From a bacterium (lineage in GTDB: Bacteria > SAR324 > NAC60-12): a stretch of 64,000 nt of DNA. Shown in pieces: positions 6,461-60,026 of the stretch. The translations under genes and the position numbers were made by a program. The notes beneath the pieces were generated by a model. It was not told where the DNA came from. It saw nothing but the letters and a program-made list of their open reading frames with translations, and searched no databases. Positions within the stretch are counted from its first letter, which is position 1; each line of letters begins with the position of its first letter. Location of the stretch: NCBI GenBank assembly GCA_965205865.1, contig CBDBHR010000030.1, positions 515,031 through 579,030 on the forward strand. Reading direction: 5' to 3'.

Positions 6461-6497
6461 CCCCCCTCCCCTAGCCCCTCCCTCCAGGGGAGGGGGA
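6461..6497. repeat. G/C-rich palindromic dispersed element (REP-like), family CCCCTCCCC...GGGGAGGGG.
   Basis: cccccctcccctagcccctccctccaggggaggggga. Nested inverted repeats; related copies at 16473, 33581, 40544, 41391 and 48383-48694. Confidence 0.8.
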
Positions 6498-6530
6498 TTC
6501 TCTTGAAGCGGTATTTGGTATCAGCTCTGA

Positions 6531-9500
6531 TTAAGGTGAGACAAACAATTTTTCAAAGCGTTGCAGGCCGTCCAGAATATGATTCATTGAATTGGGGATG
6601 TTGTTCAGAATCAGAGTGTTTTCGGGAACAAAACGGAGTGGGGTTTGTGGCTGTTGCAGCCATTCAATCAGTTTTTCAGTATTCAGCTTATCGGTTTTCA
6701 GGATTTGTACTTGCAACTGATTGTTGCGATGTTCGATGGTTTTAAAAGCGAAACGCTGCCCTAACAGACGGGCTTGGGTGCTTTTGAACAAATCGATCAA
6801 CGGGTCGGGCAAATGCCCGAAACGATTTTCCGTCTCATCCCTTAAGTTTCGGAGCGCCTCTTCATCGCGCACCGCCGCCAGTTTTTTATAGAGGCCCAAT
6901 CGTTGACCGGAGTTGCGGACGTAGGTTTCGGGGATATGACATTGCGCATCAAAACTGATTTTGATTGCTTCAAGTGGAAACGATTCTTTTTGTTTTTTCA
7001 GTTTTTTCACGGCATCGTCTATCATTTGAGTATAGAGTTCCATTCCCACACTGGCAATATGTCCGGATTGCGCGGCTCCCAACAAATTCCCGGCACCCCG
7101 CAATTCCAAATCCCGGGAGGCAATTTTGAATCCGCTTCCCAATTCGTTGAGTTCCTGCAGAATTTTTAAGCGCTCTTCAGCAACTTGGCTCAGGATGCCG
7201 TCCGCAGGAACCAGCAAATACGCATAGGCTTGCAGGTTGCTGCGTCCTACTCTACCGCGGAGTTGGTACAGTTGAGACAAACCGAATTGATGGGCATTGT
7301 TGACGATGATGGTGTTGGCGCGGGGAATATCCAGTCCCGATTCGATAATGGTCGTGGAAACCAAGACCTCATACTCTCCTTCAATAAAACGCATCATGAT
7401 CTTTTCCAACTCATTCTCGCTCAGCTGCCCGTGAGCAATGGCAATTCCCACGTCCGGTAAGATTTGCTTGAGATATGAAGCATATTCATAAATAGTCTCC
7501 ACGCGATTGTGCACGATAAAAACCTGTCCATTCCGTCGAATTTCCCGGCTGACGGCTTCTTGAATGATGTGGGCATTGGATTTGACAAAACGGGTTCGTA
7601 TCGACAGACGGTCCGGCGGTGGTGAGTGAATCAAGCTCAGGTCCCGTATTCCGAGCATGGACATGTACAAGGTTCGTGGAATGGGAGTGGCGGAGAGAGT
7701 GAGGACATCGATCTCGGCGCGGAACTTTTTGATCTTTTCTTTATGGCGCACTCCGAAACGCTGTTCCTCATCGACAACGAGCAGTCCTAAATCCTTGAAT
7801 TCAATATCGGCAGATAACATGCGATGGGTGCCAATCAGAACGTCCACTGTTCCGCAGGCAAGTCGTTTGATAATCTGACGCTGTTCCGCAGGCGTACGAA
7901 AGCGGCTGAGCACTTCAATGGTTACGGGCATGCCGTCCATGCGGTTGCGGAACGAGACAAAGTGCTGTTGCGCTAAAATCGTTGTTGGTACCAAGACACC
8001 CACCTGCTTACTATCGGCAACGGCTTTAAAGGCCGCACGGATGGCAATTTCCGTCTTGCCGAAGCCCACATCTCCACAAACGAGGCGATCCATTGGATAG
8101 GCGCTTTCCATATCCGCTTTGACTTCCCGGATAACGATCGACTGGTCCTCTGTTTCTTCAAAAGGGAAAGCCAATTCGAATTCTGTCATCAGGTGATTAT
8201 CGGGAGCATAACAAAAGCCCTGTTTTGCATTGCGGGCAGCATAAATCTCCACTAAATCATGGGACATTTCTGCTACTGCCTTCGCGACTTTGCTCTTCGC
8301 CTTCGTCCAGGCTTTTTCTCCCAACTTGTTCAAGCGAGGTGGGGAGCCGTCGGCATTGATATACTTTTGTACCAGATGGAATCGGTCTACCGGAATATAG
8401 ACCTTTTCCTCCCTGGCATAAGTGAGCACCATGAAGTCGGAACTTTGCCCCGTGACATTGATTTTTTCCAAACCCCGGTAACGCCCGACGCCATAATCCA
8501 GGTGAACCACGTGATCCCCTTCCTCCAAGTCCTCCAAATTTCCCATCACTTGTTGGATATTGCTTTGATTCAATCGTCGTTTTCGGAATTTTTCTCCAAA
8601 GATTTCTTCCTCCGTGAGCAATGCGAACTCAATCTTTCCCCGGTCATTGGCCATGCGAAATCCGCAAGACAGAGGACCCGTCAAAATCGGGCTCTCTGCG
8701 CAATCCCGGGGGAGTCTGAATCCGTTTTTCAACCAATCTTCCCAACCAGGCTTTTCGTTTTTCAAAGCCTGGCCATTCCCCTCTACTCTGAAATCAGCCA
8801 GCAGTTCTTTCAAATGATCCGCATGGGTTTGATTTCTGGCGGTGAACAGGACGGTTGCTCCATCCTGCTGCCAACTTTTAATTTTCCGGATTGCATGGGC
8901 TACCGATGAATGGGGATCTTGATGGGCTTTTCGTCCATCAGTCCGCAGGGAATGATTGTCCAGGAACGAGCAATCATAAAAAGGATGAACATGATTCAGC
9001 GACTTGGACGATTCAAAGAGATTCAGGGTCAAGAACTTCTTGAAAGCGAGTTCAACATCCTGGTGACTGAGATACGACTGCTCCGGTTTCAAGGCATAGT
9101 GCTTTTGTTGACGACTCAGTTCATATTCCATAAAAATTTCATCATAGACCGCCCGTGATTTCTCCTTGATCTTCCAGGGTTCATCCAAGACGAGCAAACT
9201 GCGGGGGTCCCAATAGTCAAAAAGAGAGGAAGGGTTTTGATAGAACAACCCGAGCAAAGATTCGATTCCGGAAAAATATTGTTTCTGCTGCAACAAAGCG
9301 CATGTTTGCTCCAGTACTGCGGACGGATTTTGTCGCTGCGCTTGCTCCAGCATTTCCTGCGCATGACTATGGATATCCGCGCTGAAGAGTATTTCCTGAG
9401 CTGGTAAAATGGCAATGCTTTCCAGAGGTTGTCCTGCGGAAAGCTGGGTTTGTACATCAAAGACTTTGATGCTCGAGAGCGATTCGTGTTCCCATTCCAG

Positions 9501-26491: not shown

Positions 26492-26578
26492 GCCGAAGTG
26501 GCGGAATTGGTAGACGCGCTAGATTCAGGTTCTAGTGTCCGCGAGGACGTGGGTGTTCGAGTCACCTCTTCGGCACCA
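26492..26578 (+). tRNA. tRNA-Leu (anticodon CAG), long variable arm.
   Basis: GCCGAAGTGGCGGAATTGGTAGAC...CTAGATTCAGGTTCTAG anticodon loop (CAG). Variable arm GTCCGCGAGGACG. T-arm GGGTGTTCGAGTCACC. Ends CGGCACCA. Confidence 0.85.
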
Positions 26579-26607: not shown

Positions 26608-26680
26608 GGCCAGATAGCTCAGACGGTAGAGCAGAGGACTGAAAATCCTCGTGTCCCTGGTTCGATTCCTGGTCTGGCCA
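26608..26680 (+). tRNA. tRNA-Phe (anticodon GAA).
   Basis: GGCCAGATAGCTCAGACGGTAGAGCAGAGGACTGAAAATCCTC...GGTTCGATTCCTGGTCTGGCCA. Near-identical architecture to canonical bacterial tRNA-Phe. Confidence 0.85.
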
Positions 26681-26702: not shown

Positions 26703-28064
26703 TCATGCTGCCTTCTTTTGCGGTTCCGACTGCCGCATTTGCTCCTGGCTATACATGCAAAGACCCAACACGAGCAAGACGGCAATTTGCACTTCTCCAT
26801 CCAGAAAATTATTCTCAAAAATCCCGGCCACTAAAAACCCCAAAATACCTGCGCTTCCTCCCAACAAGAGGCAGGGGTAAAAAGTCCATCTCCGGCTTTT
26901 CCGCAAAGCAGTCCAATTCTGCTGAAAAAGCAGAATCCAAATCAACGAATAGCTGAGCAAACTCATCAAACCTCCACTGACCCAGATCTCCAGGTAAATA
27001 TTATGTACGCCCGACTTCAGCCCCGTCAAAAAACGATAGCCGCTGCGTTGACTGACGAGTTCGCGGTAGCGAGGCATCACCTCCACTCTATTGCGCGCGC
27101 CGATCCCCCACCACGGGTGATCCCGGATGACATGCCATCCTGCTTGCCACAACATCAACCGCTCTTGATTGGCAACCGGCATGAAGGCGCTGCTGAAGCG
27201 TTGCCAGAGCAGTCCTGCATGGGAGTCGGCTCGTTGCGCTTTTCTTCCGGTGAATGTATAGCTGAACAGCATCAATACGACGACCAGGCTGCCTGCCAGT
27301 CCCAAAATGAGAGGAATCCTGCGGCCAAAACGAAAACTCAAAACAAAGCCGGCAAACGCGCTGCCCAGCCAGATACTGCGTGACATGGAGAAAACGACGG
27401 CCGCCAACATGATCAAGACCACCAGGCCATACCATTTTCTCACTCTTGCCGGCAAATCCGGACAAAGAGCAAGGGCCGCCATCAAAGGGGCCATCAGCAG
27501 TAAATATCCTCCATAGGTCAAAGCGTGAGTGAAATTCCCTCGGGCGCGAAAGACAGTCTCTTCGCCAATTTTGTAGGAACCTAATTGCTGGTCGGGAGGA
27601 CGCAGCCAATCCGCTCCGCTGAAAAACTGGATGACGCCATAAAGGGCGATGAGGCATAAAAATACGGAAAAAAAATGAAACCAGCGGGGAAGATTCAGCT
27701 GAGCAAAACTCAAATAGAGCGCGAATGGCAAAAACAATCGCCAGTTTTCCAAAAGAGCGCTTCCGCCCCCGCGCGTATAGGGGGAAAGCAATCCGGAAAT
27801 CCAGACGCAAACGATAAAAAGCAGGATCGCCCGCCACAAACCGGCAGGCGCCTGCCAATAGTGACGGTTCAGCGTCACGTTCAATAAACAGATCAGATAA
27901 AGACCGAGAATGGTCGCTTCGCTACCGGAAATAGAGAAAGTGCTGAACAGCGCAAAGCAATACAGCAGCACACGGTTGCAGGCAGGTGATTTGGCGATGA
28001 TCAGCTGCCGGAAACGAAGTCCTGAGGAAGTATTTATTGGCTGATTCGTATTTTCGCTTTGCAT
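26703..28064 (-). CDS. O-antigen ligase/polymerase family membrane protein (WaaL/Wzy_C-like).
   Basis: 453-aa polytopic membrane protein with the large periplasmic-loop pattern of the O-antigen ligase family. Convergent with tRNA-Phe. Confidence 0.6.
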   Translation of the reverse strand: MQSENTNQPINTSSGLRFRQLIIAKSPACNRVLLYCFALFSTFSISGSEATILGLYLICLLNVTLNRHYWQAPAGLWRAILLFIVCVWISGLLSPYTRGGGSALLENWRLFLPFALYLSFAQLNLPRWFHFFSVFLCLIALYGVIQFFSGADWLRPPDQQLGSYKIGEETVFRARGNFTHALTYGGYLLLMAPLMAALALCPDLPARVRKWYGLVVLIMLAAVVFSMSRSIWLGSAFAGFVLSFRFGRRIPLILGLAGSLVVVLMLFSYTFTGRKAQRADSHAGLLWQRFSSAFMPVANQERLMLWQAGWHVIRDHPWWGIGARNRVEVMPRYRELVSQRSGYRFLTGLKSGVHNIYLEIWVSGGLMSLLSYSLIWILLFQQNWTALRKSRRWTFYPCLLLGGSAGILGFLVAGIFENNFLDGEVQIAVLLVLGLCMYSQEQMRQSEPQKKAA

Positions 28065-28080
28065 CCTTTATTCATTCTTC

Positions 28081-28836: not shown

Positions 28837-28884
28837 TTACCTCGCGCCGGTCGATACCGGCCATATTTCTGAAAGAGCAAACAT
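28837..28884 (-). pseudogene. 15-codon remnant of a wecA-like gene start (MFALSEIWPVSTGAR*).
   Basis: Near-identical to the first 13 codons of the intact wecA-like gene at 54697 (MFALSELWPLSSG). Part of the duplicated block 28851-29060 vs 54667-54860. Confidence 0.5.
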
Positions 28885-28932
28885 TTGCGAACAATTCGTG
28901 GTTCCCGTTTCAAAAGCGCTCCGAGTCCTGAT

Positions 28933-31125
28933 TCAGGACGCGTCTTTCGCTTTTTTTTCGGCACGTTCCTCAATGACTTTTTCCTGCAGGAAAGAAGGCA
29001 TTGCGACGTATTTTTCAAATTCCATCGTAAAGGTGGCTTTTCCGGCACTGATGGAGCGAAGTTCGGTGGCATATCCGAACATTTCCAAGAGAGGCACTCC
29101 CGCACGGACCACCGTGCTTTCTTCGCCGACCTCCGAACCATAAATCACCCCCCGTCTGGAACTCAGATCTCCAATCACCGTCCCCTGGTATTCGGCTGGA
29201 GTTTCCACTTCGACTTTCATGACCGGTTCCAGAAGAATCGGTCGGGATTTGGCGATGGCTTGTTTCATCGCCTCCCGGCAGGCAAGGCGGTAGGCCAGAT
29301 CACTGGAATCGACGTCATGGTATTTGCCATCAATCAGGGTAACCTTGATCCCGGTCACGGGAAACCCCGCCAGCGGGCCTTTTTCCATGACGTCCTGAAA
29401 TCCTTTTTCGCATGAAGGAATATGAGCGCTGGGAATAGAGCCGCCAAAAATATCGTTGATGAATTCAAAACCGTTTTCGTGTTCTGCCGGCAAGGGCTCG
29501 ATAGTGCCACTGACTCCGGCAAACTGACCTGCTCCGCCCGTTTGTTTCTTGTGTAAATGAACAAATTTCGCGGCTTGGGTGATCGCTTCCCGGTAGTTGA
29601 CTCGAGGTGCGCCAACCAAGACGTCGACTTTATATTCACGCTGGATCCGTTCCAGGTATATTTCCAGGTGCAACTCTCCCATCCCTGAAATATGGGTTTC
29701 TCCCGACTCCTTGTCCACCTTGACCTTGAAGGTGGGATCTTCACGCATGAACCGTCCCAGGGCCTTGCTCATCCTGACCTGCGATTCATTGTTTTTGGTA
29801 TCCACCGCCAGTGAAATCACCGGTTCGGAGACGTGCATGGATTCACACGCCAGCTGAATCCCGGAGCCGCAAAATGTATCCCCGGAGGCGCACTCGACGC
29901 CAATCATAGCCACGATATCCCCTGCTTGCGCCTTGTCTATATTCTGCCTGTCATTGGCATGCATGCGTACCATTCGACCCACGCGAATCTTCTTGCCGGT
30001 GCGAATGTTGACGATTTGATCCCCTTTGCGCATGGAACCCTGGTAGATCCTCGTATAGGTCAGTTGCCCGAATTGCTCTTCTGTCAGCTTGAATGCCATT
30101 GCAACCAGCGGTAACTGTGGGTCCGGCAGCAATTCGACGCTTTGATTTTCGTCTGCAGGATTCTTTGCCAAAGCCGGTTCCGCTTCCAGCGGGGAAGGCA
30201 GGTAGTGGCAAACCGCGTCCAAAAGCGGTTGCACCCCCTTGTTGCGGAACGCCGAACCCAAATAGACCGGACAGAGTTGCAACGACTGCACCCCTTTTCT
30301 GACAGCCACGTGGATCGCTTCTGCGGAAACTTCCTTTTCCTCCAGCAAATCCTCCATCAGTTGGTCATCGAACATGGAAACCGCTTCCAGCATCTCCCTG
30401 CGCCTCTCCTCGGCCGCCTCAATCGAGTCGGCAGGAATACCTTCCACGCGCAATTTCTCTCCTCGCGTCCCCTCGAAATAAATGGCCTTCATGCTGACCA
30501 GATCCACCACCCCTCGATGCTCCTCTTCCAGACCAATCGGAATCTGCATGGCGACCGCATTCAATTCCAGGATCTCGCAAAGGTCTTCGACCACTCGTGC
30601 GGGATCCGCCCCCCGGCGGTCCAGTTTGTTGATAAAAGCCAGCCGGGGCACCCGGTAGCGTTTCATCTGACGATCCACCGTGATCGATTGCGACTGTACC
30701 CCGGCAACTCCGCAAAGGACCATGATCGCGCCATCCAACACTCGCAAGGAACGCTCCACTTCAACCGTGAAGTCCACATGCCCCGGGGTGTCGATGATGT
30801 TGATCGTCTCTCCCTTCCAAAAAACGGTGGTGGCGGCGGAAGTAATGGTGATCCCCTTCTCTTTTTCCAAATCCATATGATCCATCGTCGCCCCCGCTCC
30901 CCCGCCATGCACTTCCCCGATCTTGTGAATCTTTCCCGCGTAATACAAAATGCGCTCGCTCAAAGTGGTTTTGCCACTGTCGATGTGGGCTGATATACCG
31001 ATGTTTTTCATACGTCCAATGCTTCTTTGCAGGATATCGTCGCACGACAATTCCCGACTTTCCGACAGGTCACTGCCGTATTTATACGAAGGTTCAGAAA
31101 CGATTACCTCTCCTTGATTTTCCAT
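28933..31125 (-). CDS. fusA: Elongation factor G paralog (EF-G2-like translational GTPase), not in an str operon context. Alternative start at 31011 (MKNIGISAH).
   Basis: G1-G4 GTPase motifs ([21 protein letters not shown]) and EF-G domains II-V. 730 aa. Confidence 0.85.
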
Positions 31126-31283
31126 GAATTTCTACTGCTTTCTAATTAGGGTTTGCCCATCTGCGTAATAAAAGTTAAGCTGCATTTTTTATATCATCTA
31201 TCAAAGGATCGCAAGTTTTTTTCATATCATGATGCGCTCCTCATTGCTATCCCTCCGTTGCAGTGAAGCAAGAGGACGCGAAT

Positions 31284-31650
31284 AAGGAGCCCGAAACATA
31301 GTCGCCGGTGATCGAATCACGGGAGGAAAGTCCGGGCAACGCAGGGCAGGATGCTGGCTAACAGCCAGGCAGCGCGAGCTGACGGAAAGTGCAACAGAAA
31401 ATAAACCGCCGATGGCTTTTTTGAGCACAGGCAAGGGTGAAAAGGCAGGGTAAGAGCCTACCGCGGCTCTGGTGACAGAGTCGGCAGTGTAAACCCCATC
31501 CGTTGCAAGTCCAAATAGAACCGCGTCGAAAGATGGCCCGTCCAGCGGTTGGGTAGGACGCTCGAGGTTCCTGGCAACAGGGATCCCAGATAAATGACTA
31601 TGGTCTGCCGCAAGGCAGGAACAGAACCCGGCTTATTGCGGGCTCCGCTC
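31284..31650 (+). ncRNA. rnpB: RNase P RNA (bacterial type A).
   Basis: P4 GGGAGGAAAGTCCGGGC; ACAGAAAATAAACCGCC; GGTAAGAGCCTACC; GCAAGTCCAAATAG; 3' ACAGAACCCGGCTTA. P1 pairing ggagcccg (31286-93) with cgggctcc (31639-46). Confidence 0.75.
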
Positions 31651-41157: not shown

Positions 41158-42699
41158 ATGTCGACCCGCAAAACATCCGCACCGCAACAGCAAAGTAAGG
41201 GGGAAACCCGGGCGGGGGTCCGCTCTTCCAATCCCCTCGAGGCGCGTTCCGCGCTTTATGGTCTGTTGCCTTCGATCAGGGAAGTCGATCATTATCTGAA
41301 AGCGCGCGATCTGCACTTTGGTAAACCGGTGCGCGCCCATGTCAACGGGGTTCTGGACGGATTGCGGGAAGAAATTTCAGCTTCAATCAATCCCCCTCCC
41401 CTGGAGGGAGGGGCCAGGGGAGGGGGATTGGCGGAGGGTGGAGAGCCGGCGGTCCCCCCTTTGCCGTTTTCCAGCAAAGAGCAAATCCTGGAGCATCTGG
41501 CTGCGATCGTCAGGCAGCGGGGTCAGATCAGTATTCGTCGCGTGATCAATGCGACCGGCGTGGTCATTCATACCAATCTGGGCCGCGCTCCTATTTCGCG
41601 GAAATTGATCGATTCGATTCTGCCGCTGCTCTCTTCTTATGCCACCGTCGAGTACGATTTGGAATCCGGCAAACGCGGCACCCGTGGCGAGGGAGTGAGG
41701 AATCACCTGCGCTTTCTATCGGGAGCGGAGGACGCGCTGGTGGTCAACAACAATGCCGCGGCGCTTTATTTGATGCTGGTGGCCCTGGCTTACGGAAAGG
41801 AAGTGATTGTTTCCCGCGGGGAACTCATGGAAATAGGTGGATCCTTCCGCGTTCCGGACATCATGCGGGCTGCCGGCGTTCGACTGGTGGAAGTGGGAAC
41901 GACCAACCGCACGCGTCTTTCCGATTATGAAAAAGCCATCAACGGCAATACGGCCGCCTTGCTGAAAGTTCATCCTTCCAATTACGAGATGCGGGGATTT
42001 GTCGAGGAGACGCCGGTTGCCCAAATTTCCCGGTTGGCGCGCGAGCATGAACTGTTCGCGTTCCATGATCTGGGAAGCGGCAATTTCTATCAATTCGAAC
42101 AGCCGGCCTTGCGGGGTATCTCCACGGTGCAGTGGGAAGTACGCAGTGGAGTCGACCTGCTGACCTTCAGTGGAGATAAATTACTGGGCAGTACCCAGGC
42201 AGGCATCGTGGTTGGTCGTAAAAATCTGATCCGCCGACTTGCCCGCCATCCCCTGTTCCGCGTGCTGCGTTTGGACAAGATCACCATGGCTTTGCTGGAA
42301 GTCCATCTGGCAGCCTATTTTCAAATGGAGACACTGGCCAGCGCCATCCCCACCATCGGACTATTGGAACAATCGAGCGACGCCATCCGGCAAAAGGCGG
42401 AGACCGTGCTGCGCTCCCTCAGCATTCCTCCTCGATGCGGCTGGTCCTGCAAGTTGGCAGCGGCAGCTTCCCTGAGCGGAGGTGGGGCTTTGCCGGAAAT
42501 TTATCTCGATTCCTATTGCCTGGTGCTGGAACACGTCACTTTGCCTGCTGAAAAAATCCAGCAGTTTTTCCGACAACAGGAGATACCGGTCATTGCAAGA
42601 GTGCGGAACAACCAGGTCTGGCTGGATTTCCGCACGGTTTTTCCCGAGGAATTTCCCCTGATCACTCGCGTTCTTCATCAACTGTTCGCTGCTCAATGA
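41158..42699 (+). CDS. selA: L-seryl-tRNA(Sec) selenium transferase.
   Basis: SelA motifs INATGVVIHTNLGRAP, VVNNNAAAL, VSRGELMEIGGSFR, FSGDKLLG. Contains an in-frame REP-like insert (NPPPLEGGARGGGLAEGG) in the N-terminal linker. Confidence 0.85.
   Translation: MSTRKTSAPQQQSKGETRAGVRSSNPLEARSALYGLLPSIREVDHYLKARDLHFGKPVRAHVNGVLDGLREEISASINPPPLEGGARGGGLAEGGEPAVPPLPFSSKEQILEHLAAIVRQRGQISIRRVINATGVVIHTNLGRAPISRKLIDSILPLLSSYATVEYDLESGKRGTRGEGVRNHLRFLSGAEDALVVNNNAAALYLMLVALAYGKEVIVSRGELMEIGGSFRVPDIMRAAGVRLVEVGTTNRTRLSDYEKAINGNTAALLKVHPSNYEMRGFVEETPVAQISRLAREHELFAFHDLGSGNFYQFEQPALRGISTVQWEVRSGVDLLTFSGDKLLGSTQAGIVVGRKNLIRRLARHPLFRVLRLDKITMALLEVHLAAYFQMETLASAIPTIGLLEQSSDAIRQKAETVLRSLSIPPRCGWSCKLAAAASLSGGGALPEIYLDSYCLVLEHVTLPAEKIQQFFRQQEIPVIARVRNNQVWLDFRTVFPEEFPLITRVLHQLFAAQ
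41391..41427. repeat. REP-like G/C palindromic element inside the selA coding sequence (in-frame).
   Basis: tccccctcccctggagggaggggccaggggaggggga; identical to the core unit of the 48.4-kb tandem array. Confidence 0.85.
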
Positions 42700-48209: not shown

Positions 48210-48382
48210 CTTTTGTTTTAATAGAGGTAATGGTATTTGGGGTCATATTGCTCGGTGTCTTCTCGACCGCAGAGAGAGATCTTCAAGGGTCCTCCGGAAA
48301 CCGGGATTTCAATGTTTCTCTCTCCTCAGGTTTCGCTGGCTTGGACCAAATAGTCAATTCATACGAAGTTGCGCATATAAAG

Positions 48383-48694
48383 AATCCCCCTCCCTTGGAG
48401 GGAGGGGCCAGCACGGGAAAATCCCCCTCCCCTGGAGGGAGGGGCCAGGGGAGGGGGACAGCAGCCCAAAGAATCCCCCTCCACGCCAAGAATCCCCCTC
48501 CACGCCAAGAATCCCCCTCCACGCCAAGAATCCCCCTCCCTTGAAGGGAGGGGCCAGCACGGGAAAATCCCCCTCCCCTGGAGGGAGGGGCCAGGGGAGG
48601 GGGACAGCAGCCCAAAGAATCCCCCTCCACGCCAAGAATCCCCCTCCACGCCAAGAATCCCCCTCCCCTGGAGGGAGGGGCCAGGGGAGGGGGC
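48383..48694. repeat. Nested tandem array of REP-like palindromic elements.
   Basis: Higher-order unit: two palindromic cores (89 bp in total) plus 3 copies of aatccccctccacgccaag, then the same 89 bp plus 2 such copies, then one terminal palindrome. The two 89-bp blocks differ by a single substitution. Confidence 0.9.
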
Positions 48695-48823
48695 GCGAAG
48701 CTGGAAGATCCCCCCCGACGTCAAAAAATTCACTACTCGTCGGGTTGTCTTGATTATCCTAAAGATTTCAGTATTACTCATTGAATCACAACTATTTTTT
48801 ATTATTTTCCCTATTCCGGAGCC

Positions 48824-50996: not shown

Positions 50997-51278
50997 CTCC
51001 AAGAGAAGAAAACTGAAAGATGAAAATATCCCACTTTTACCTTGATTAGTCTTCCAAAATACGAAAAAATCATGAAAAATTGTCCTTTACTCCCAGATTT
51101 CCAGTTGTTATCGTTTTCAGTGATTTTCTTATGTTGATGATTTTCAGATATTGTCTAGATGTCATCATCCTCAATGATTTTTATTTTCCTAAAATGTCAC
51201 CTCTTCCGGGTCTTGTAGTATCCGGAGGTTAGGGAACATACGGAGCTTGAAACACAAGAAATTCGGAGGAAAAACCCC

Positions 51279-52049
51279 ATGCGTCCGCATCGCCGTTACA
51301 AAAACCCACCCATAGAAGAGGCGCTTTGTGAATTTCGCTTCAAACCGGGACGGGACTGGGACCTCTTCATTCCAGGTAAACTCCATTCCAAAATCGATGA
51401 GGAATATGGTGGTAAGCCACGGGAACAAAAAGTTGTCGAGTTGGGATTGGAAGCCCAGGGAGGCAAGCCTCCCAATCTGAGATATGGTGAAGCGTTGTCA
51501 ATTATCCAACTGGTCACGAAGGATGGCAAAAGGATAGTTGGGGTTGGACCCGACATACTCAACGTTCACATGCTGCGTCCCTATCAAAATCCTCTTGATC
51601 CTGAACGCAGTGGATGGGACGAGTTCAAACCCCGGATTTCAGAAGCGCTCGATGCATACTGGAAGGTGGCTAAGCCAATTGGTGTATGTAGGATTGGTAT
51701 TCGGTACATAAACAAAATCCTCATACCACAGAAAACGGTAGAGGTCGAGGAATATCTCAAGTGTGCTTTGCCGGTTGTAAGAGGATTGCCAGATCGCCGG
51801 AAGCACTTTGTGAGCCGTGTTGATTATGACTATGGAGACGGTATGCGTCTGGGTTTGTCTCAGCGATCGATCAAGGCCCCTCCGGATCACATGGGTTTTC
51901 TGCTTGATCTTGACGTCATTTGGGAGAACTCCAAATCGCTTGCGCAGGACAAAGCATTGGAAAAAGTAGGTGACTTGCGCACTCGTGAAAGAGAAGCATT
52001 CGAAACTGTCATCACGGATAAAGCCAGGGAACTCTTCGATGCCGATTGA
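51279..52049 (+). CDS. Uncharacterized protein, TIGR04255-family-like, first gene of the three-gene operon.
   Basis: 256 aa; GGAGG RBS 8 nt upstream. N-terminal Y..PPIEEALCEFRF pattern recalled as typical of TIGR04255 proteins (from memory, not searched). Confidence 0.55.
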   Translation: MRPHRRYKNPPIEEALCEFRFKPGRDWDLFIPGKLHSKIDEEYGGKPREQKVVELGLEAQGGKPPNLRYGEALSIIQLVTKDGKRIVGVGPDILNVHMLRPYQNPLDPERSGWDEFKPRISEALDAYWKVAKPIGVCRIGIRYINKILIPQKTVEVEEYLKCALPVVRGLPDRRKHFVSRVDYDYGDGMRLGLSQRSIKAPPDHMGFLLDLDVIWENSKSLAQDKALEKVGDLRTREREAFETVITDKARELFDAD

Positions 52050-52761
52050 AAAATACGTACCTGCGCGTTCCAGAACCTCGACCTTTGATTCGGACACATT
52101 CTTTAAGATGGACGAATCGGGAGTGGCCTATGCCTCCCCGCATTGGCTCACCGAGGGAAAGGAATCGTTTGCGGCTTCTTTAGACGCCGAGACACCGCAA
52201 AAAGCGATGGCGGATCTGTTCGAACTATTCCCTGAGCAAACGACAGTGGTCCCGGATAGTACTTTATGGGTTGCGCTTATTTTTCCTGTACTCGTGGATG
52301 CAGCCTGCTTCGAACCGGCAGTCTCGCAACAGGCGCCTGTTGAAGGTCGAGAACAAAAACTGCTTGCGGCCAAACTGTGGACGTCCTTTGAAGCCGACAC
52401 CCTTGAAGACGGAATGGAACATCCAGCCGAGCAGATTATTGGAAAGGCGTTGCGATCCGAGGAAGAACTGCGCGTTCTTGAATGGTTCAGGGCTTTTGCT
52501 TTGGATGCTGAACGGCCGAGCTTTGCGGCATCGGTTCTGCGTTGCCTGGGACGTCAAATGCATCCGGGGACGGATTCATGGCGTGTTGAACTCGTGCGTG
52601 ACGCGCTGGCCATGGATGATGTGGAGATCAGGGACGCAGCCGCACAAGCAGCTGAATCGTGGGGTGGCCGGGATCTGATCGAGGTTCTAACGTCTCATCG
52701 TGAGCCGGAACCTTGGCTTCGAGACTACATTCGGGACATCATTGATGACCTGAGGGAGTAG
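52039..52761 (+). CDS. Uncharacterized acidic protein (possible helical-repeat fold), second gene of the three-gene operon.
   Basis: ATG overlaps the upstream stop by 11 nt (translational coupling). 240 aa; no recognizable catalytic motif. Confidence 0.5.
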   Translation: MPIEKYVPARSRTSTFDSDTFFKMDESGVAYASPHWLTEGKESFAASLDAETPQKAMADLFELFPEQTTVVPDSTLWVALIFPVLVDAACFEPAVSQQAPVEGREQKLLAAKLWTSFEADTLEDGMEHPAEQIIGKALRSEEELRVLEWFRAFALDAERPSFAASVLRCLGRQMHPGTDSWRVELVRDALAMDDVEIRDAAAQAAESWGGRDLIEVLTSHREPEPWLRDYIRDIIDDLRE

Positions 52762-52764
52762 GGG

Positions 52765-53280
52765 ATGTTCCTGGCACGCAAGATTACACGCGCCAAGTGG
52801 CGCCCCAAGGAGGAATTGTCGGTGGAAGAAATTCCGGCCGATGCGGTGACTGTTGATCTGAGGACACAGGAAAACTCGTTGTCTTTCTGGCAGTGTAGCA
52901 TCGGGGAAGAGGCCGAAGTCGAAGAGGTGGCGCTGGCGATAGCCGCCGCAGGTGAACGTATCGATAAGCTCGACATCGTTTGGTTTTCCGATGACGAGCT
53001 GCGGGCTGACAGCCAACAGTGGAAAAAAACCGACGGACGAACACCCGTTGCAGAGTTGGTCAGGCGACATGTCGATGTGTATCGTCTCGACTACGTGCGC
53101 CTCGGAAAAGTCGCTTCTCGTATCGCTACTGCAATAAAAGAGAGCCGATTCCGGCGGCTATCGAAGAAGCGTGTTACAGATCTCCTTGCGACAGCAGTCG
53201 AACAAGAACGTGTCAAACTGGACGACCTTGATAGTCGTGTCCATACAGAGGTGCGTGAGTCGCTCGGGGTAGAGAGATGA
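52765..53280 (+). CDS. Uncharacterized protein, third gene of the three-gene operon.
   Basis: ATG 4 nt after the upstream stop, with a GGGAG RBS. 171 aa; no recognizable motif. Confidence 0.5.
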   Translation: MFLARKITRAKWRPKEELSVEEIPADAVTVDLRTQENSLSFWQCSIGEEAEVEEVALAIAAAGERIDKLDIVWFSDDELRADSQQWKKTDGRTPVAELVRRHVDVYRLDYVRLGKVASRIATAIKESRFRRLSKKRVTDLLATAVEQERVKLDDLDSRVHTEVRESLGVER

Positions 53281-53572: not shown

Positions 53573-54697
53573 CTAATGTTGACGTCCCCGGAATCTTCTC
53601 GCCAGTCTTTTGGGGATTCGCAGAATAGGATGGCGACGCAGCAATGCCACTCGTCGGTAAACCATGAAGTATAGAATGAACTGCAACACGAATGCCAGCA
53701 TTGCCCATTCCCGGGTGTGTGGAATAAATACGGCGAAAACCAGACTGCTCATTGTTCCTCCCCAGAGCAGCACGCTGGTGATGGCATTGGCGAGCTTTTC
53801 GTTTTTCAGCGATTTTGCAATCTTGCGGGCATAGGTCCGGTAGACCAACATATGCAGGTGTACTTTATCCGGTCTGGTGGGTCGATGGCGCTTACGGATC
53901 GTTTTTCGAATAATCGAATGAACGATTTCCAGCAGCGGATATGCCAGGATCATGATGCTGACCCATTCCGATATTTCCGGATTTCGTACGGGAAGCATGA
54001 CCGCCAGGGCGCCAAGCAGGAAACCCGCGAAATAGGCTCCTCCATCTCCCAGAAAAATGTATCCCCAGGGAAAATTCACCAAGAGGAACCCCAACAGAAC
54101 TGCGACGATAATGGCCGCCAACAAGACCAATTCGTAATCATCCACCATATAGGCCACAACTCCGAACGCCGAAGCCATGATGATCACGGCTCCCGCGGCC
54201 AGGCCGTTAAAACCATCGATGACGTTGATGGCGTTAGTCAGACCGCTTATTGCGAGAGCGGTGAATACGAGTGAGACGAAATGCCGCTCGATGAGATCGT
54301 CGACCAGATAGACTTCCGTTTGGGTCACCGAGTATCCGGTCATCACGCAGAAAAGCAGACCCGAAATTATCGTTGCCAGCAGGCGCAAGACGACCGGCGC
54401 TCTTTTGGTCAAATCTTCCATCAGACCCGCAAGGAAAGCCGGGCTGCCACTCATGCCAAGCACGATCAACAGACTTTGCGTTGGTTGGGAAGTCGCCATC
54501 ACGACCATCCAGAATCCGACGAACAGGGTCAGCCCGCCGATCCTCGGTGTCGGCTTATCGTGAAACTTCTGGGGTCCCGTGAAGGTATCGAAGGTAAGAG
54601 AACCATGCCAGCGCTTGCTGAGCACGATCAGAACGCTGCCGAGTAAGGAGACAAAAAAACCGCTCGATAGCGGCCATAATTCTGAAAGAGCAAACAT
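53573..54697 (-). CDS. wecA: Undecaprenyl-phosphate N-acetylhexosamine-1-phosphate transferase (WecA/WbpL/MraY family, GT4 polyprenyl-phosphate transferase).
   Basis: Polytopic membrane protein with NAINVIDGFNGLAAG and other MraY/WecA motifs. 374 aa. Confidence 0.8.
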   Translation of the reverse strand: MFALSELWPLSSGFFVSLLGSVLIVLSKRWHGSLTFDTFTGPQKFHDKPTPRIGGLTLFVGFWMVVMATSQPTQSLLIVLGMSGSPAFLAGLMEDLTKRAPVVLRLLATIISGLLFCVMTGYSVTQTEVYLVDDLIERHFVSLVFTALAISGLTNAINVIDGFNGLAAGAVIIMASAFGVVAYMVDDYELVLLAAIIVAVLLGFLLVNFPWGYIFLGDGGAYFAGFLLGALAVMLPVRNPEISEWVSIMILAYPLLEIVHSIIRKTIRKRHRPTRPDKVHLHMLVYRTYARKIAKSLKNEKLANAITSVLLWGGTMSSLVFAVFIPHTREWAMLAFVLQFILYFMVYRRVALLRRHPILRIPKRLARRFRGRQH

Positions 54698-54745
54698 TTG
54701 CGAACAATTCCTGGTTTCCGTCTCAAAGCCTGTCCGAATCCTGCT

Positions 54746-54860
54746 TCAGGACTGTTCTTTGGCTTTTCCGGCACATTCCGTGATGGCTTTTTCCTGCAGG
54801 AAAGAAGGCATTGCGGCGTATTTTTCAAAATTCATCGTATAGGTGGCTTTTCCTACAATG
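54746..54860 (-). pseudogene. Remnant of the 3' end of an EF-G (fusA2-like) gene.
   Basis: Reverse strand translates to [36 protein letters not shown], against the fusA2 C-terminus [40 protein letters not shown] identity about 80% to 28933-29060. Confidence 0.7.
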
Positions 54861-55065
54861 AAACTTCTATACCAGGTATTAAGGGATCACAAGCTTTTAT
54901 CAAATCATAATGCGCGTCCTCATTGCGCCCCGGCCAAAACACAGTCGCTGGTGATGATCGACTTTTTGGTCCGTCACGGTCACCTTGACCCGCATGATCC
55001 CCATTTTTTGGAAATCGTCCATGGATTACGGTGGCTTCGTTGAGGATTATATGGGCAAATTTCCC

Positions 55066-55238: not shown

Positions 55239-55796
55239 ATGTCTGAAGTCGAAATGCAGTACAGCAGCACAGAAAACTGGTACGCGCTCCGTATCCGTTC
55301 CAGGTTCGACCAATTGTCGGAAAGGGCGCTGAAGAACAAACGATTCGAGGTTTTCAATCCAACCTACCACGAATGGAGTCGACGCAAGGATCGTAAAAAA
55401 CTATTGAGAAAATCCATATTCAAGGAATACATGTTTTTACGAACCACCCTGACTGCGGAGATTCACCTGGAAGTATTGAAAACCTATGGAGTAATGCTAC
55501 TCTTGCAAAACCGTACCGGTCCGGTCCCGATCCCCGACAGTCAAATCGCCAACATACGCCTGCTCGAGCAGCACGTGGGACGCTGTTTCCACGCTCCGGA
55601 ATATGCGCAGGGGGATTGGGTCCGTATCCGTGATGGGGTTATGGAAGGTTTGGTTGGTCAAATTGATTGGATGAAAAAAAATCTATTACGCATCACAGTC
55701 AACGGCATTGCCGGATCGGTTGCCATCGAAGTCAATCCGCATCAGGTGGAACTGCTGGAAAAGGACCCGGTCTACAAGGCAGTGGTCAGTCACTAG
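55239..55796 (+). CDS. rfaH: NusG-paralog transcription antiterminator (RfaH/UpxY-like), leading the polysaccharide gene cluster.
   Basis: NusG N-terminal-domain signature (WYALRIRSRFDQ) and C-terminal KOW-like region (GDWVRIRDGVMEGLVGQI). Confidence 0.6.
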   Translation: MSEVEMQYSSTENWYALRIRSRFDQLSERALKNKRFEVFNPTYHEWSRRKDRKKLLRKSIFKEYMFLRTTLTAEIHLEVLKTYGVMLLLQNRTGPVPIPDSQIANIRLLEQHVGRCFHAPEYAQGDWVRIRDGVMEGLVGQIDWMKKNLLRITVNGIAGSVAIEVNPHQVELLEKDPVYKAVVSH

Positions 55797-55913
55797 TCCT
55801 TTTTTTCTGCGCCGCATTTTGTCCGGTGCATTCCCGGGTCATGTAACGCAGATGGCGAAGCTTGCTCAAAAATAAAAGAATCAATTGAACCTACTCAAAA
55901 GGAGAAACGCATA

Positions 55914-57211
55914 ATGTCGGATCAACCAATTTCGCCGGTCGAAGATTCCGAAATCGATTTGCTCCACGTCTTCGCCGTCATCTGGCGCAGGAAATGGTTG
56001 ATCGCCGGCGGTACGCTCATCGTTCTCGTTGCCGCCTGGTTTGCCTGCGCCAATCTTCCCAAGGCGTACCAGGTTACCGTCAAGATCTGGCCGGTCCACA
56101 CCCCGGCGATTGGCGGAGAACTGACGTCGGGCGGAACCAATAGAGTGGACATGGAGGCCATCGTCAAACCGATCGTGGCATTTTTTCAAAACTATTCCCT
56201 GGCCGAGAGCGCCATTCGAGAGTTCGAACTGGACAAATCTCCATTCGACCTGACGGCGAGCGCTTTCCTCGAAGGAAACGTAGACGTGCAACTGGACCGG
56301 AAAACCAATTTGATCAATTTCAGTCGTGGAACTGACAGACGCCGCTTTGGCATGGGAGGTTGTGAATTACATGGCCCGTGAAGGGATCGAGAGGTACTCT
56401 CAGCTTGTCCAGAAAAAATTTACGCAGGAATGCGGATTACCTGGTGAGCCAACTGGATGAGAGCAGGATGCAATTGAAAAAGGAGGGGGAAGCGCTGACC
56501 GCCTTCCAACAGAAGGCCAACACGACCAGCCTGACTGGTCGCAAGTATTTTTTGCAGAGCCAGAGCGATGAACTTGCCGGCAAGATCGTCGAGGCGGAAA
56601 TCGAACTGGCGGCAAAAGGCGCGGAAATTCTCGTGCTGGAGGATGCGGTCAAGGGAAACAACCAGAGCACGGGGGCGAATGCATCTCCCAGTGGAGCAAA
56701 AATAAGCAGGGAGGAAACCAGTTCTTCAAATGATGGCCTTGATTCCATGCGGCTGCTTACCGAAGGACTGAAAAATTTTTTCGAAAATAACGAGGCGAGA
56801 TTGATTCGAAACAAGGCAGAGTATGCATCGTTGCAGGCGGGCAAGGAAAAGATGGAGCAAACTAAACGTGAGACCGAGGCGGAGCTCGCCTTGATCGAAG
56901 AACAGCTCGCCACGGTGAGCGTCGAAGAAGAAAAGTTGCGTCGTAAACTGGAGTTGACGAACAAGATGAATGAACTCACCGAGTTGGAATTGGTGAAAAG
57001 CAGGAATGCCTCGGAGTTGCTGGTTCAACAAATCGCAATCGTGGATACCGGGGGCATACCCCAGAAACCGGTTCGTCCTCGAGTGCTTTTCATTACCGCC
57101 CTGTCCGGTGCCGTGGCTTTCTCATTTTTCACCTTCCTTGCGTTTCTAATGGAGGAAGCCGTCAGGCGTCGTGAGATCCGTACATTGGAAAGACCTGCTT
57201 CGCTGTCCTGA
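55914..57211 (+). pseudogene. wzz: Polysaccharide chain-length determinant (Wzz/PCP family) gene interrupted by frameshift(s) around 56313-56415.
   Basis: N-terminal Wzz domain with TM helix in frame 0 (ORF 55914..56381). The expected continuation ELTDAALAWEVVNYMAREGIERYSQLVQKK is in frame +1. The remainder (LRRNADYLVSQLDES..coiled coil..C-terminal TM) is in frame +2 (ORF 56378..57211). An A6 homopolymer lies at 56406-56411. Confidence 0.6.
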
Positions 57212-58604
57212 CGGATACAGCAATGAATGCAACTATTGGGTTAACCAAATGAGAGCGCTATTCTGGCTGCTAGCTGTAATTGTTCTGCTGAACCTGAATA
57301 GCGCAACTCATATGTTTACCGGCGTGCCGAGCGCGTTTAAACCGGTACTTGTTCTTTGCTCTCTGCTCCTGATTTTGATTGGTTTGCTCAAGGTTCCGCC
57401 GGGGCGTGCCCTTGGAGTACCTGGCCTGCTGATCATTGCCGCCTTGGGGTCGTACCTGGTCATTGCCTCGACAGTGTCCCTCACCACCGGCTTCGGCCCG
57501 GTTTGGGATGCCTGGGAACATTTTGAGGATTACGCCAGCTCCATTATTTTGATTCTGGCCGCGGCTCTCGGTGGATACTCGGTGATGCGAATTATGGGCA
57601 GCGAAACGCTCCTGAAAGTACTACTCGTGCTCTTGACCGTGGATTGCATTGCCATATTGGCCACGCCCTTATTATCTGAATTTTACGTCATCAGTGGTCT
57701 ATCGCCATATCGCTTCCTTGGAAACTTTAAGAACCCCAATGTCGCTGGTCTGATTGGATGTCTGACGGCAGTGTTGGCCCTGTCTTTTCTTCAAGTCCGC
57801 CGGCATCGATGGTTCGCTTACCTGGCGTTGACCCTGGCCGTGGGAGCCACTGTCGGGACGTTTTCGAGAGCCGCTTTCCTGATTTTGATCTTCGTCCTGA
57901 TGGTTTTCTTTTTATTCAACTATCGCGGGAAAGCATTTGTTGTCAAGTGGTTGTCTCTCGTGGTTCCGATCGGCGTCATTTTCCTGATGATCGTGGATTT
58001 GGACCTCTTTGTCTTGGAACAACGATGGCAACGGTTATGGGAAATAGCTACGTTGCTTCCCGGTTACGAGGTTACCGATTCATCAATAAGTGAAAGACAG
58101 GAATTGTTAGTCCTGGCTCTGGATGAGACAGCAAAATCTCCTCTCTTTGGTAATGGTCTCGGCACGATTCATTCACTGGATCATGCCCCATACAGCTCGC
58201 AAGGCGTACCTCAGGGTGCTCACAATCTATACCTGATTTTAATAGGAGAAGCTGGCATTTTTCCGCTGGTGTTTTTTTTATTGTTTCTCGGTTCCTTACT
58301 GCGATTGCGCTTGACGACATCGAAATCCGTTGCCAGGGATGCCGTTGTCGGTTGGGCGATTGTCATTGGCATGGCTTGCATGGCCTCCCATAATATACTG
58401 GCTATGAGAACAGTCGACTTCCTTATCGGTTTGAGTTGCGCAATGGTGGCCGGCTATCGGAGAATCCCAAACGCGCCGGGTAGCGAATCCCAGTCTTCTT
58501 TTTCAGCAATCAGTCAAGGCTGTAATCAAGTCGTGTTTGGCCAAACCGGTAGAGGAGGTCCATCGCAGAGAGAAAAGGGAAATGACTGTGTGTCTCCGAT
58601 CTGA
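57171..58604 (+). CDS. wzy: O-antigen polymerase/ligase family membrane protein (Wzy_C domain). Alternative start 57249 (MRALFWLLAV).
   Basis: About 10 TM helices and a large loop with GAHNLYLILIGEAGIFPL, typical of Wzy/WaaL proteins. Confidence 0.65.
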   Translation: MRSVHWKDLLRCPDGYSNECNYWVNQMRALFWLLAVIVLLNLNSATHMFTGVPSAFKPVLVLCSLLLILIGLLKVPPGRALGVPGLLIIAALGSYLVIASTVSLTTGFGPVWDAWEHFEDYASSIILILAAALGGYSVMRIMGSETLLKVLLVLLTVDCIAILATPLLSEFYVISGLSPYRFLGNFKNPNVAGLIGCLTAVLALSFLQVRRHRWFAYLALTLAVGATVGTFSRAAFLILIFVLMVFFLFNYRGKAFVVKWLSLVVPIGVIFLMIVDLDLFVLEQRWQRLWEIATLLPGYEVTDSSISERQELLVLALDETAKSPLFGNGLGTIHSLDHAPYSSQGVPQGAHNLYLILIGEAGIFPLVFFLLFLGSLLRLRLTTSKSVARDAVVGWAIVIGMACMASHNILAMRTVDFLIGLSCAMVAGYRRIPNAPGSESQSSFSAISQGCNQVVFGQTGRGGPSQREKGNDCVSPI

Positions 58605-58673: not shown

Positions 58674-60026
58674 ATGACGACGGATTCCTCACAAGATCTG
58701 ATGACGACGGGCGGACAGGAGGTTGTCATGGTTTTGGCGACCAAGGCCGGGCTCTTTATAACCGGTCTTTTGATCCAGAGCCTGCTCGCCTACGCGCTCC
58801 TTCCGGAAGGCCGCGGGGAATATGCCGTATGCATCATGTTTGGAGGGCTGCTCGGAGTATTGTTTACGCCTGGGGCCGACCGGGGCTCGCAGTATTTCGT
58901 CATGGCGAAACAGATCAGCGTTTCTCAGGGCGTATCCGTTGCCCTGACCATCTGTCTGACGGGTACCGCATTGGCCCTAGTGCTGGTGGTTCCACTGATC
59001 CAAAGCGATATTGCCTTCTTTCGCAAGGCAAAACCCCACTCTTTGTACCTGGCACTCGCATTGGTCTTTCTCATGTCCTTCTCCACTTCACTTCAATTAC
59101 AACTCGCCGGGCTCAGGCGTTTCGCTCGACTCGCATTATTTACATTATCTCAGGCTATGTTTCACGTGCTGGCAATAATTTCTCTTGTTTGGGGCCTTGG
59201 TCTTGGAGTTGATGGCGCCATCGTATCGCTCACCCTCGGCCATCTCGTGATGATCATCGCTTGCCTCCTAGATCTCCGAAAGAATTGCCGTCTGGTGTTG
59301 GAAATGCCGTCTCGTTCCGGGCTGACTCGTGTTTTTAGTTACGGTCTGAAATACTACGTCGCGCGTGTCGGAGCTGAGGTCGGTTCGAAAGTTGGAGTCC
59401 TTTTCCTCGGATTGGTAGCGAGCCGTTCTGAAATTGGCTTCTTTGCTCTGGGAAGCTCACTCATGTTACAGGTATTCATGCTCTCGAATGCGGTCTCTGC
59501 CTCCTTGCTACCTCGCGTCTCAAGCGATGAGAAAGGACGGCCTGAACTTGTTGCATTCTGCGCACGCAGTTCGTGCTGGGCCACCGGTGTGGCTCTTGTC
59601 GCACTGCTCGCAGTCAGTACGCCGCTGATTCGAATCCTGTTTTCGGATGCTTTCCTTCCAGTGATTCCGCTTATCTGGATCATCGCACCCGGAATTTTCG
59701 TATACTCAGGTAGCAGTATTTTTAGAATATATTTTCTTGGTGTAAACCGTCCGGAAGTATGCTCCTGGGCCATATGGACTGGACTGAGCGCAAATCTCGT
59801 CGTGCTCGTTTGGCTCTACTCACAACTGGGTGTTGAAGCTGTTGCTTGGGCAATGACCACTGGTATGCTCTGTAATAGCGCATTTCTCTGGATCGCATAT
59901 CGGCGGACTACTCGTATGAGCTTTTTCTCGACATGGGTGCCAAAGCGTAGCGACATCAAATTACTATTGACCTCGGGTCGGTTATTATTCAGCCGTGTCT
60001 TCAGGGTGAGGTCCGGTGATGCTTGA
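58674..60026 (+). CDS. wzx: Polysaccharide flippase (MOP superfamily, Wzx-like).
   Basis: 450-aa membrane protein with about 12-14 TM helices, between wzy and the modification genes. Confidence 0.7.
   Translation: MTTDSSQDLMTTGGQEVVMVLATKAGLFITGLLIQSLLAYALLPEGRGEYAVCIMFGGLLGVLFTPGADRGSQYFVMAKQISVSQGVSVALTICLTGTALALVLVVPLIQSDIAFFRKAKPHSLYLALALVFLMSFSTSLQLQLAGLRRFARLALFTLSQAMFHVLAIISLVWGLGLGVDGAIVSLTLGHLVMIIACLLDLRKNCRLVLEMPSRSGLTRVFSYGLKYYVARVGAEVGSKVGVLFLGLVASRSEIGFFALGSSLMLQVFMLSNAVSASLLPRVSSDEKGRPELVAFCARSSCWATGVALVALLAVSTPLIRILFSDAFLPVIPLIWIIAPGIFVYSGSSIFRIYFLGVNRPEVCSWAIWTGLSANLVVLVWLYSQLGVEAVAWAMTTGMLCNSAFLWIAYRRTTRMSFFSTWVPKRSDIKLLLTSGRLLFSRVFRVRSGDA

Follow-up and report, generated by a model that had tools for sequence, protein, structure and literature searches.

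A frameshifted wzz-like co-polymerase gene in an uncultured bacterium: two single-base insertions that probably derive from merged strain haplotypes

A Wzz-like polysaccharide co-polymerase gene in the window (the whole 64,000-nt stretch of DNA analysed here) is spread over three reading frames by two single-base insertions, located at positions 56326 and 56427. Both insertions are likely, with a probability of roughly 0.7, to be a consensus artefact arising from merged strain haplotypes, with the gene for the 431-residue co-polymerase otherwise intact.

Reading frames and extra bases

The ATG at 55914 was read from the sequence as the start of the gene. From this codon, frame 0 extends over 55914–56381 (stop codon 56379–56381) and encodes a 155-residue product with the C-terminal end ...RGTDRRRFGMGGCELHGP; frame +1 carries VELTDAALAWEVVNYMAREGIERYSQLVQKKFTQ, followed by nonsense, and frame +2 carries NADYLVSQLDESRMQLKK..., a coiled-coil region and a hydrophobic C-terminus, ending with a stop codon at 57209–57211. 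An earlier, sequence-only reading of the window had recognised a Wzz gene spread over three frames, and this is borne out both by the reading of the frames and by the match of the 155-residue frame 0 piece to the Wzz profile PF02706 (33.4 bits, the cut-off being 25.5). The features of the gene are arranged as follows.

55900..55904, + strand: AGGAG resembling a Shine-Dalgarno site, 9 nt ahead of the ATG, seen directly in the sequence
55914..56325, + strand: segment 1, codons 1–137, frame 0; PF02706 match, aligned with homolog residues 1–137
56326, + strand: extra base no. 1 (G), AGTC[G]TGG, shifting frame 0 to +1; absent from 10 of 10 relatives
56327..56426, + strand: segment 2, frame +1, LELTDAALAWEVVNYMAREGIERYSQLVQKKFTQ; homologs identical in register through QKKFTQ
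56413..56418, + strand: A6 tract, coding for K-K in the correct frame, with no shift there according to the alignment of relatives
56427, + strand: extra base no. 2 (one G of GG 56427–56428), ACGCAG[G]AAT, shifting +1 to +2; absent from 10 of 10 relatives
56428..57211, + strand: segment 3, frame +2, 260 codons, free of other stops and indels; weak GNVR match

Segment 1 holds the cytoplasmic N-terminus, the first transmembrane helix (TM1) and the majority of the alpha/beta base domain; segment 2 completes the base domain and begins a long helix; and segment 3 holds a helical hairpin, the proline-rich stretch IPQKPVRPR, the second transmembrane helix (TM2) and the stop codon. The two insertions lie 101 nt apart. 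Removal of both 56326 and 56427 yields a single ORF of 431 codons plus stop, which removal of either one alone does not, and the 1296 nt of the gene are without any other stop or indel. The corrected length of 431 residues is exactly that of P0001, the closest intact homolog (91% identity). The earlier expectation that two single-base changes would restore an ORF of about 430 residues thus holds, with the correction that the A-tract is not one of the two sites.

The reconstructed protein has 27 close homologs (41–92% identity, best E = 9e-246), the intact ones being 421–432 residues long, and because of these matches the three-frame split lies far beyond chance. The homologs are single proteins, so that the two pieces do not correspond to independent complete proteins. 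The closest intact homologs read ...NLIHFS[L/V]ELTDAA...QLVQKKFTQNADYLVSQL; since the homolog reads QKKFTQN, frame +1 is still correct through the A6 tract (K-K) plus three codons (F-T-Q).

For comparison at the DNA level we used ten related loci (L001–L010). Exactly two bases are unique to the window against this set, 56326 and one G of 56427–56428, and both their positions and their absence from the relatives are directly established. Extra base no. 1 can equivalently be placed at T56324, in AG[T]CGTGG; it lies outside homopolymers and is no copy of an adjacent base. These alignments move the frame boundaries from where they had been put: frame +1 is right only from 56326–56329 (rather than from about 56314), frame +2 only from 56428 (rather than from about 56415), and the A6 tract itself is at 56413–56418, not 56406–56411. 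The switch from frame +1 to +2, previously assigned to the tract, is produced by the extra G 9–10 nt downstream of it (CAG|G|AAT).

Relatives of the locus were found in long-read metagenome assemblies only. Scanning of GTDB genomes returned a single relative, L002 (OZ242383.1; 79% protein identity, approximately 78% nucleotide identity), whilst a protein-profile scan and a search with the exact DNA pattern GCATGGGAGGTKGTGAATTACATGGCCCG returned no relative in JGI metagenomes. By exact-sequence look-up, no identical copies of the 155-residue fragment, of the adjacent NusG-like protein or of the Wzy are on record. Roughly one in four of the database homologs appears to be truncated or to have a local frameshift, and the shorter entries P0018, P0019, P0021, P0024 and P0025 are disrupted copies, each broken elsewhere.

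Tandem-allele form of the insertions

Each extra base coincides with a site at which the related strains differ. At site 1 the relatives carry either AGTCTGG (Ser-Leu; L001, L004 and L006–L008) or AGCGTGG (Ser-Val; L002, L003, L005 and L009), and the window sequence AGTCGTGG equals the two placed in tandem; it is reproduced by aligning TC with CG at their common C and retaining both flanking bases, and in neither haplotype could copying of an adjacent base produce it. At site 2 the alleles are ACGCAGAAT (Thr-Gln-Asn; L001, L003 and L005–L008) and ACCAGGAAT (Thr-Arg-Asn; L004), and the window has ACGCAGGAAT, the two in series. The SNPs flanking site 2 are all of the L001/L003 type, so that the inserted G is all that an L004-type partner would supply; simple doubling of a G, whether real or erroneous, explains this site equally well. 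In the window around site 1, L001-like and L003-like alleles alternate every few bases.

The same form recurs in other assemblies. All 11 of the singleton insertions found in wzz (two in the window, one in L006, four in L007, three in L008 and one in L010) combine a sequence's own allele with that of another haplotype in tandem, which we term union-type, and only one of the 11 is, as placed by the aligner, a duplication of a neighbouring base. As a null we enumerated all distinct one-base insertions (3709 outcomes over 1235 alignable nt of the gene), assuming that insertions are uniform over positions and bases; under this model 20.7% of the outcomes are union-type, giving a chance of 0.207^11, or approximately 3e-8, for 11 out of 11. 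The particular type of shift seen at both window sites makes up a share of 0.0154, giving 2.4e-4 for the two sites together. L007 and L010, from different samples and with different flanking haplotypes, share an identical insertion at one polymorphic site. The three insertions in L008 amount to a net +3, and its protein is therefore locally scrambled yet full-length. The union form and its recurrence in other assemblies are, like the insertion positions, direct observations; in every disrupted homolog for which DNA was fetched, the single-base insertions have the tandem-allele form at a strain-polymorphic site. A further tandem-allele case was seen in the GT4 glycosyltransferase gene of L004.

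We infer a long-read assembly of mixed strains as the source of the window, with the insertions made at the consensus step. The reads of two strains that belong to one species and occur together would have been merged into one consensus; adjacent substitutions between the strains (TC versus CG; GCAG versus CAGG) can also be aligned as an insertion plus a deletion, and a consensus that retained the bases of both alleles serially would gain one base per site. A partial-order-alignment consensus that placed alleles in series instead of in parallel may thus have left the tandem signature. Such a mechanism needs a graph-based consensus or low coverage, because under a simple majority one haplotype cannot win both the 'keep' and the 'insert' columns. 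Going by the coverage values encoded in the contig names, insertions are commonest at low coverage (four in L007 at 2x and three in L008 at 4x), with none in the wzz of L001 (25x) or L003 (17x). The contig names of the relatives (ctgN_NNx_l, ctgNl) resemble the output of metaMDBG, which we presume to be their source. With this assembler, strains that are similar become collapsed into consensus genomes, and the polishing is racon-like (PMC13087279). The gene sits at the border between a conserved flank (98–99% identity between strains) and a hypervariable polysaccharide cluster (approximately 87%), and it is at such a boundary that partial strain collapse is most likely. We also note that the relatives do have genuine defects at non-polymorphic sites, among them a one-nucleotide deletion in the wzy of L001 and a CAA-to-TAA nonsense codon in the wzz of L005 (a contig of 2x coverage), which run counter to an artefact; the wzz of L009 has a one-nucleotide deletion that is likewise not of union form.

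The window as a whole does not appear to be error-ridden. Many of its ORFs are 700–1200 residues long, and adjacent ORF pairs are distinct genes; against the syntenic L001 it is 95–99% identical over 10.8 kb with only seven indels. Three of the seven break a frame, namely the two insertions in the window wzz and the wzy deletion of L001. With long ORFs throughout and so few indels, a generally error-ridden window was rejected as an account.

Competing explanations

The principal alternative is that wzz is a genuine recent pseudogene, inactivated by two real 1-bp insertions and reduced to a 155-residue stump, and this we consider unlikely. The sequence as given does carry both insertions, surface-polysaccharide genes are common targets of inactivation, and site 2 can be read as a simple G-to-GG duplication; moreover, since relatives carry defects that are not union-type (the nonsense codon of L005 and the deletion of L009 in wzz, and the wzy deletion of L001), a pseudogene of very recent origin has to be considered. 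Against it, real mutations would have had to fall twice, independently and 101 nt apart, in a gene that is otherwise sound, each time exactly on a shiftable polymorphism and each time so as to give the two alleles in tandem (P about 2.4e-4), in a form shared by 11 of 11 insertions across independent assemblies; site 1 is, in addition, no duplication or slippage product of either haplotype. The 260 codons downstream show no decay. In the corrected frame, dN/dS over the three segments is 0.13–0.4 where sites sufficed, and 0.2–0.4 downstream of the shifts; reflecting mostly older divergence among functional alleles, these values do not discriminate between an artefact and a pseudogene of very recent origin, and the lack of additional lesions is likewise compatible with either. 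Were the pseudogene real, the stump would comprise TM1 and part of the base domain, and chain-length control would be lost with wzy and wzx left intact. A broader version holds that the disruptions are real throughout and that the lineage repeatedly inactivates its chain-length regulator in nature, citing the two frameshifts of the window, the nonsense codon of L005 and the frameshifts in L006, L007, L009 and L010; we think this improbable. If true, it would point to selection against regulated long chains, for instance by phages, and the tandem-allele insertions would represent an unusual mutational process that acts, between co-resident alleles, at the sites where these are polymorphic.

Sequencing error had been offered earlier as one option, in the form of a homopolymer error; error is indeed what we favour, at polymorphic sites and through merged haplotypes instead. 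Generic sequencing or polishing indels unrelated to strain mixture are a slim prospect by comparison: long-read metagenome assemblies do hold some frameshift errors (PMC13087279) and the G-to-GG at site 2 would suit them, but site 1 is outside a homopolymer, both sites are polymorphic and reproduce the other allele, and comparison with L001 reveals no errors of this kind in the remainder of the window. Slipped-strand phase variation at the A6 tract, switching wzz on and off, was the leading idea of the earlier reading, and it does have an A6 tract inside the gene; shortening of the tract to A5 would likewise open the frame again, there being no stop between the tract and 56428. This A5 repair gives QKNLRRN, and was rejected because the homologs keep A6 and read KKFTQ (QKKFTQN in the closest, QKKLTRN in others). 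The tract is AAAAAA in L001 and L003–L008, of which five have an intact gene (L001, L003, L004, L007 and L008) and two have defects elsewhere (L005 and L006); the more distant L002 and L009 have AATAAA, and no length variants occur. Neither extra base lies inside the tract, the homologs and frame +1 of the window agree on QKKFTQN through it, and no change in the tract could mend the shift at 56326. With the shift outside the tract and the tract length constant, phase variation at A6 is refuted, and we give it very little weight. That the ribosome makes programmed +1 shifts here, or that the split gene is functional as it stands, is hardly credible at all, its support being the mere presence of the shifts. 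Programmed +1 frameshifting is known from prfB, where it involves a stop-codon pause site and a slippery motif; neither was seen at either position here, the net shift is +2, and conservation of the shifts is lacking, all intact homologs being single ORFs without the extra bases and the short entries (P0018, P0019, P0021, P0024 and P0025) being broken at differing positions. None of the five explanations (merged haplotypes, recent pseudogene, generic error, A6 phase variation or programmed frameshifting) amounts to novel biology.

The protein, its locus and known systems

The reconstructed protein matches PF02706 with 32.0 bits, and the last piece has a weak GNVR match (E = 0.008, below cut-off). 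None of the NCBIfam curated models reaches its cut-off for the reconstructed protein, the best being TIGR03007 (56.2 bits against a cut-off of 278.85, E = 1.7e-15, residues 15–346). Searching of the PDB by sequence gave marginal matches only, all to polysaccharide co-polymerases (PCPs; FepE, E = 0.003, and Wzc, 0.018), and a fold search was therefore needed. For this we used an AlphaFold2 model of P0001 (91% identical to the reconstructed protein), built from a 22-sequence alignment with a pLDDT of 74.6. The model comprises TM1 (27–46), two long helices (143–249 and 274–368) and TM2 (390–425), together with a small alpha/beta base domain and strands at 51–61, 123–140 and 372–377. Every one of the 38 best Foldseek matches in the PDB is a PCP (Wzc, WzzE, WzzB, the Wzz-Wzy complex, KpsE and FepE), with E values of 3e-9 to 5e-3 and TM-scores of only 0.2–0.4.

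Members of the PCP family carry a periplasmic base domain and a long helical hairpin between two transmembrane helices, and a conserved proline/glycine-rich motif lies just before TM2. In the present protein TM2 is preceded by GGIPQKPVRPR, a candidate for this motif in which P382 and R389 never vary in alignment A3 and P385 and P388 hardly do. The chain ends 10–20 residues past TM2, and no kinase domain was found in profile searches or in the model, which argues against the PCP-2a type (Wzc-type, with a BY-kinase). These data support an ordinary Wzz-like polysaccharide co-polymerase without a kinase domain, encoded by a gene that is probably intact. By analogy with the family, the intact 431-residue protein would oligomerise and work with the neighbouring Wzy to set polymer length. 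The gene had been assigned to O-antigen chain-length control; its Wzz-family membership stands, and the 'O-antigen' label is narrower than the evidence allows, which is a co-polymerase fold next to wzy and wzx, the best curated match being to an exopolysaccharide model and far below cut-off.

The genes around wzz are listed below.

53573..54697, - strand: WecA/MraY-family initiating phosphoglycosyl transferase, divergent (PF00953, E = 2e-28; TIGR02380 wecA, E = 2.5e-23, below cut-off)
55239..55796, + strand: NusG-paralog antiterminator (UpxY/RfaH-like), just upstream (PF02357, E = 1.6e-15; NF033644 UpxY, E = 4e-23, below cut-off)
57249..58604, + strand: Wzy-like polymerase (O-antigen ligase family), intact (PF04932 Wzy_C, E = 1.6e-14)
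58674..60026, + strand: Wzx-like flippase (PF01943 and PF13440, Polysacc_synt)

Further genes of the locus encode an APH-like kinase, a methyltransferase and a GT4 glycosyltransferase. The order co-polymerase, wzy, wzx is the same in L003, L004, L006 and L008, and the gene order fits a Wzx/Wzy-dependent heteropolysaccharide locus. Biologically the case is a minor one, an ordinary Wzz-like gene in an ordinary locus of this kind in an uncultured bacterium, whether the insertions are an artefact or mark a pseudogene. Since tandem-allele insertions recur, apparent pseudogenes in hypervariable surface-polysaccharide loci of long-read metagenome-assembled genomes need read-level, strain-aware checks before they are read as phase variation or decay.

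Amongst known co-polymerases, the predicted protein resembles the PCP-1 type (WzzB, WzzE and FepE) in having a Wzz domain above threshold, no kinase, and two transmembrane helices with a base domain and hairpin; the gene is directly upstream of wzy and wzx, and the Foldseek matches include WzzE (8bhw and 8p3p), WzzB (6rbg), the Wzz-Wzy complex (8c0e) and FepE (3b8m). It differs from this type in its low identity (approximately 10–13%, with the TM-scores given above) and in its length, 431 residues against roughly 300–390 for solved Wzz chains. Its best curated match, TIGR03007 (the XrtA-system chain length determinant, EpsF), is a PCP-2b-like exopolysaccharide determinant lacking a kinase domain and of similar size and architecture, and the top structural matches are to the periplasmic and transmembrane part of Wzc; however, the score of 56 bits falls far short of the cut-off of 279 bits, and a tyrosine kinase, a Wza-type exporter or an XrtA/PEP-CTERM gene was not noticed among the annotated ORFs of the locus.

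As in homopolymer contingency loci, a surface-polysaccharide gene holds a short A tract and looks frameshifted; the case departs from such loci in that the shift is outside a tract whose length is constant among strains. Six adenines are, in any case, short for a contingency tract. There is also a likeness to the frameshift artefacts of long-read metagenome assemblies with collapsed strains, where single-base indels truncate predicted proteins (PMC13087279); among the contigs compared here, they are commoner in those of low coverage. The feature that sets the present insertions apart from those published is the signature of both alleles in tandem at a polymorphic site, which was derived here from 11 cases and of which we found no description in the literature examined. 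Where related haplotypes exist, asking whether an inserted base equals the other allele provides a cheap test for such an artefact.

Disrupted reading frames in related polysaccharide loci

Interruptions of wzz, the gene for the Wzz-like co-polymerase, are also found among the related loci, in more than one form. In L005 (a 2x contig) the wzz homolog at positions 455–1726 carries no indel; codon 179 is instead a nonsense codon (CAA to TAA), as a result of which the gene is stored in the database as two proteins of 178 and 239 aa. The wzz genes of L007 and L010 share an extra G, GAAGAAGA[G]AAAG, at the position equivalent to window 56931, which is itself the site of an A/G polymorphism; the two contigs come from different samples, have 2x and 14x coverage, respectively, and differ in their flanking haplotypes.

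Two further genes of the locus are affected in relatives. In L001 (a 25x contig), one C is missing at position 11889, equivalent to window 57804 (CCGCCGG-ATCG). Six other sequences are all alike at this site. The loss breaks the Wzy gene of L001 into ORFs of 219 and 100 aa. This deletion is not of the union type, i.e. a single-base insertion that reads as two strain alleles in tandem. In L004 (a 2x contig), the WecA-like (GT4) gene reads ACGGGACCCCCAG at the equivalent of approximately window 54570, compared with ACGGGA-CCCCAG or ACGGGC-CCCCAG elsewhere, and is cut off at codon 48 by this change, which can be read either as tandem A and C alleles or as a C4-to-C5 change.

The 90%-identity database cluster of P0001, the closest intact wzz homolog, lists as members P0031 and P0032, two JGI 'hypothetical proteins' of 54 aa. 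Their sequences look unrelated to P0001, and their membership is probably a clustering oddity.

Additional genes and RNAs in the window

26492–26575 and 26608–26680, two tRNA genes
26703–28067, minus strand, second Wzy_C / O-antigen-ligase-family protein, 454 aa (E = 3e-19)
31286–31650, plus strand, bacterial RNase P RNA class A (319 bits)
51219–53280, three successive ORFs of 276, 263 and 172 aa, between the sulfatase and WecA-like genes

The 454-aa Wzy_C protein, which could be a WaaL-type ligase, is encoded at a distance from the polysaccharide locus and adjoins the two tRNA genes. A 137-aa minus-strand ORF overlapping the RNase P RNA is spurious. A Pfam search gave no match for any of the three successive ORFs, and the region that holds them is missing from L001 and variable among the relatives.

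Duplicated and repeated sequences

A duplication of approximately 200 nt links window 28847–29051 with 54660–54861 (84% identity). The former copy comprises the 3′ end of the EF-G gene (28933–31131, minus strand) together with downstream sequence, whilst the latter is situated between the WecA-like and NusG-like genes, a position that it also occupies in L001, L003, L004 and L006–L008. An element of approximately 80 nt at window 1692–1771, probably a small dispersed repeat, matches L001 at 4139–4215 and 7053–7132 (95–97% identity), where the two copies lie in opposite orientations.

48380–48727, tandem repeat with a 146-nt unit, copies 99% identical

The 146-nt unit is composed of G/C-rich palindromes (AATCCCCCTCCC...GGGAGGGG) and 19-nt sub-repeats, and its palindrome of approximately 39 nt recurs at two further sites in the window, 41389–41427 and, inverted, 6462–6501. 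The palindrome and the tandem repeat that contains it have the appearance of a REP-like or terminator-like dispersed element.
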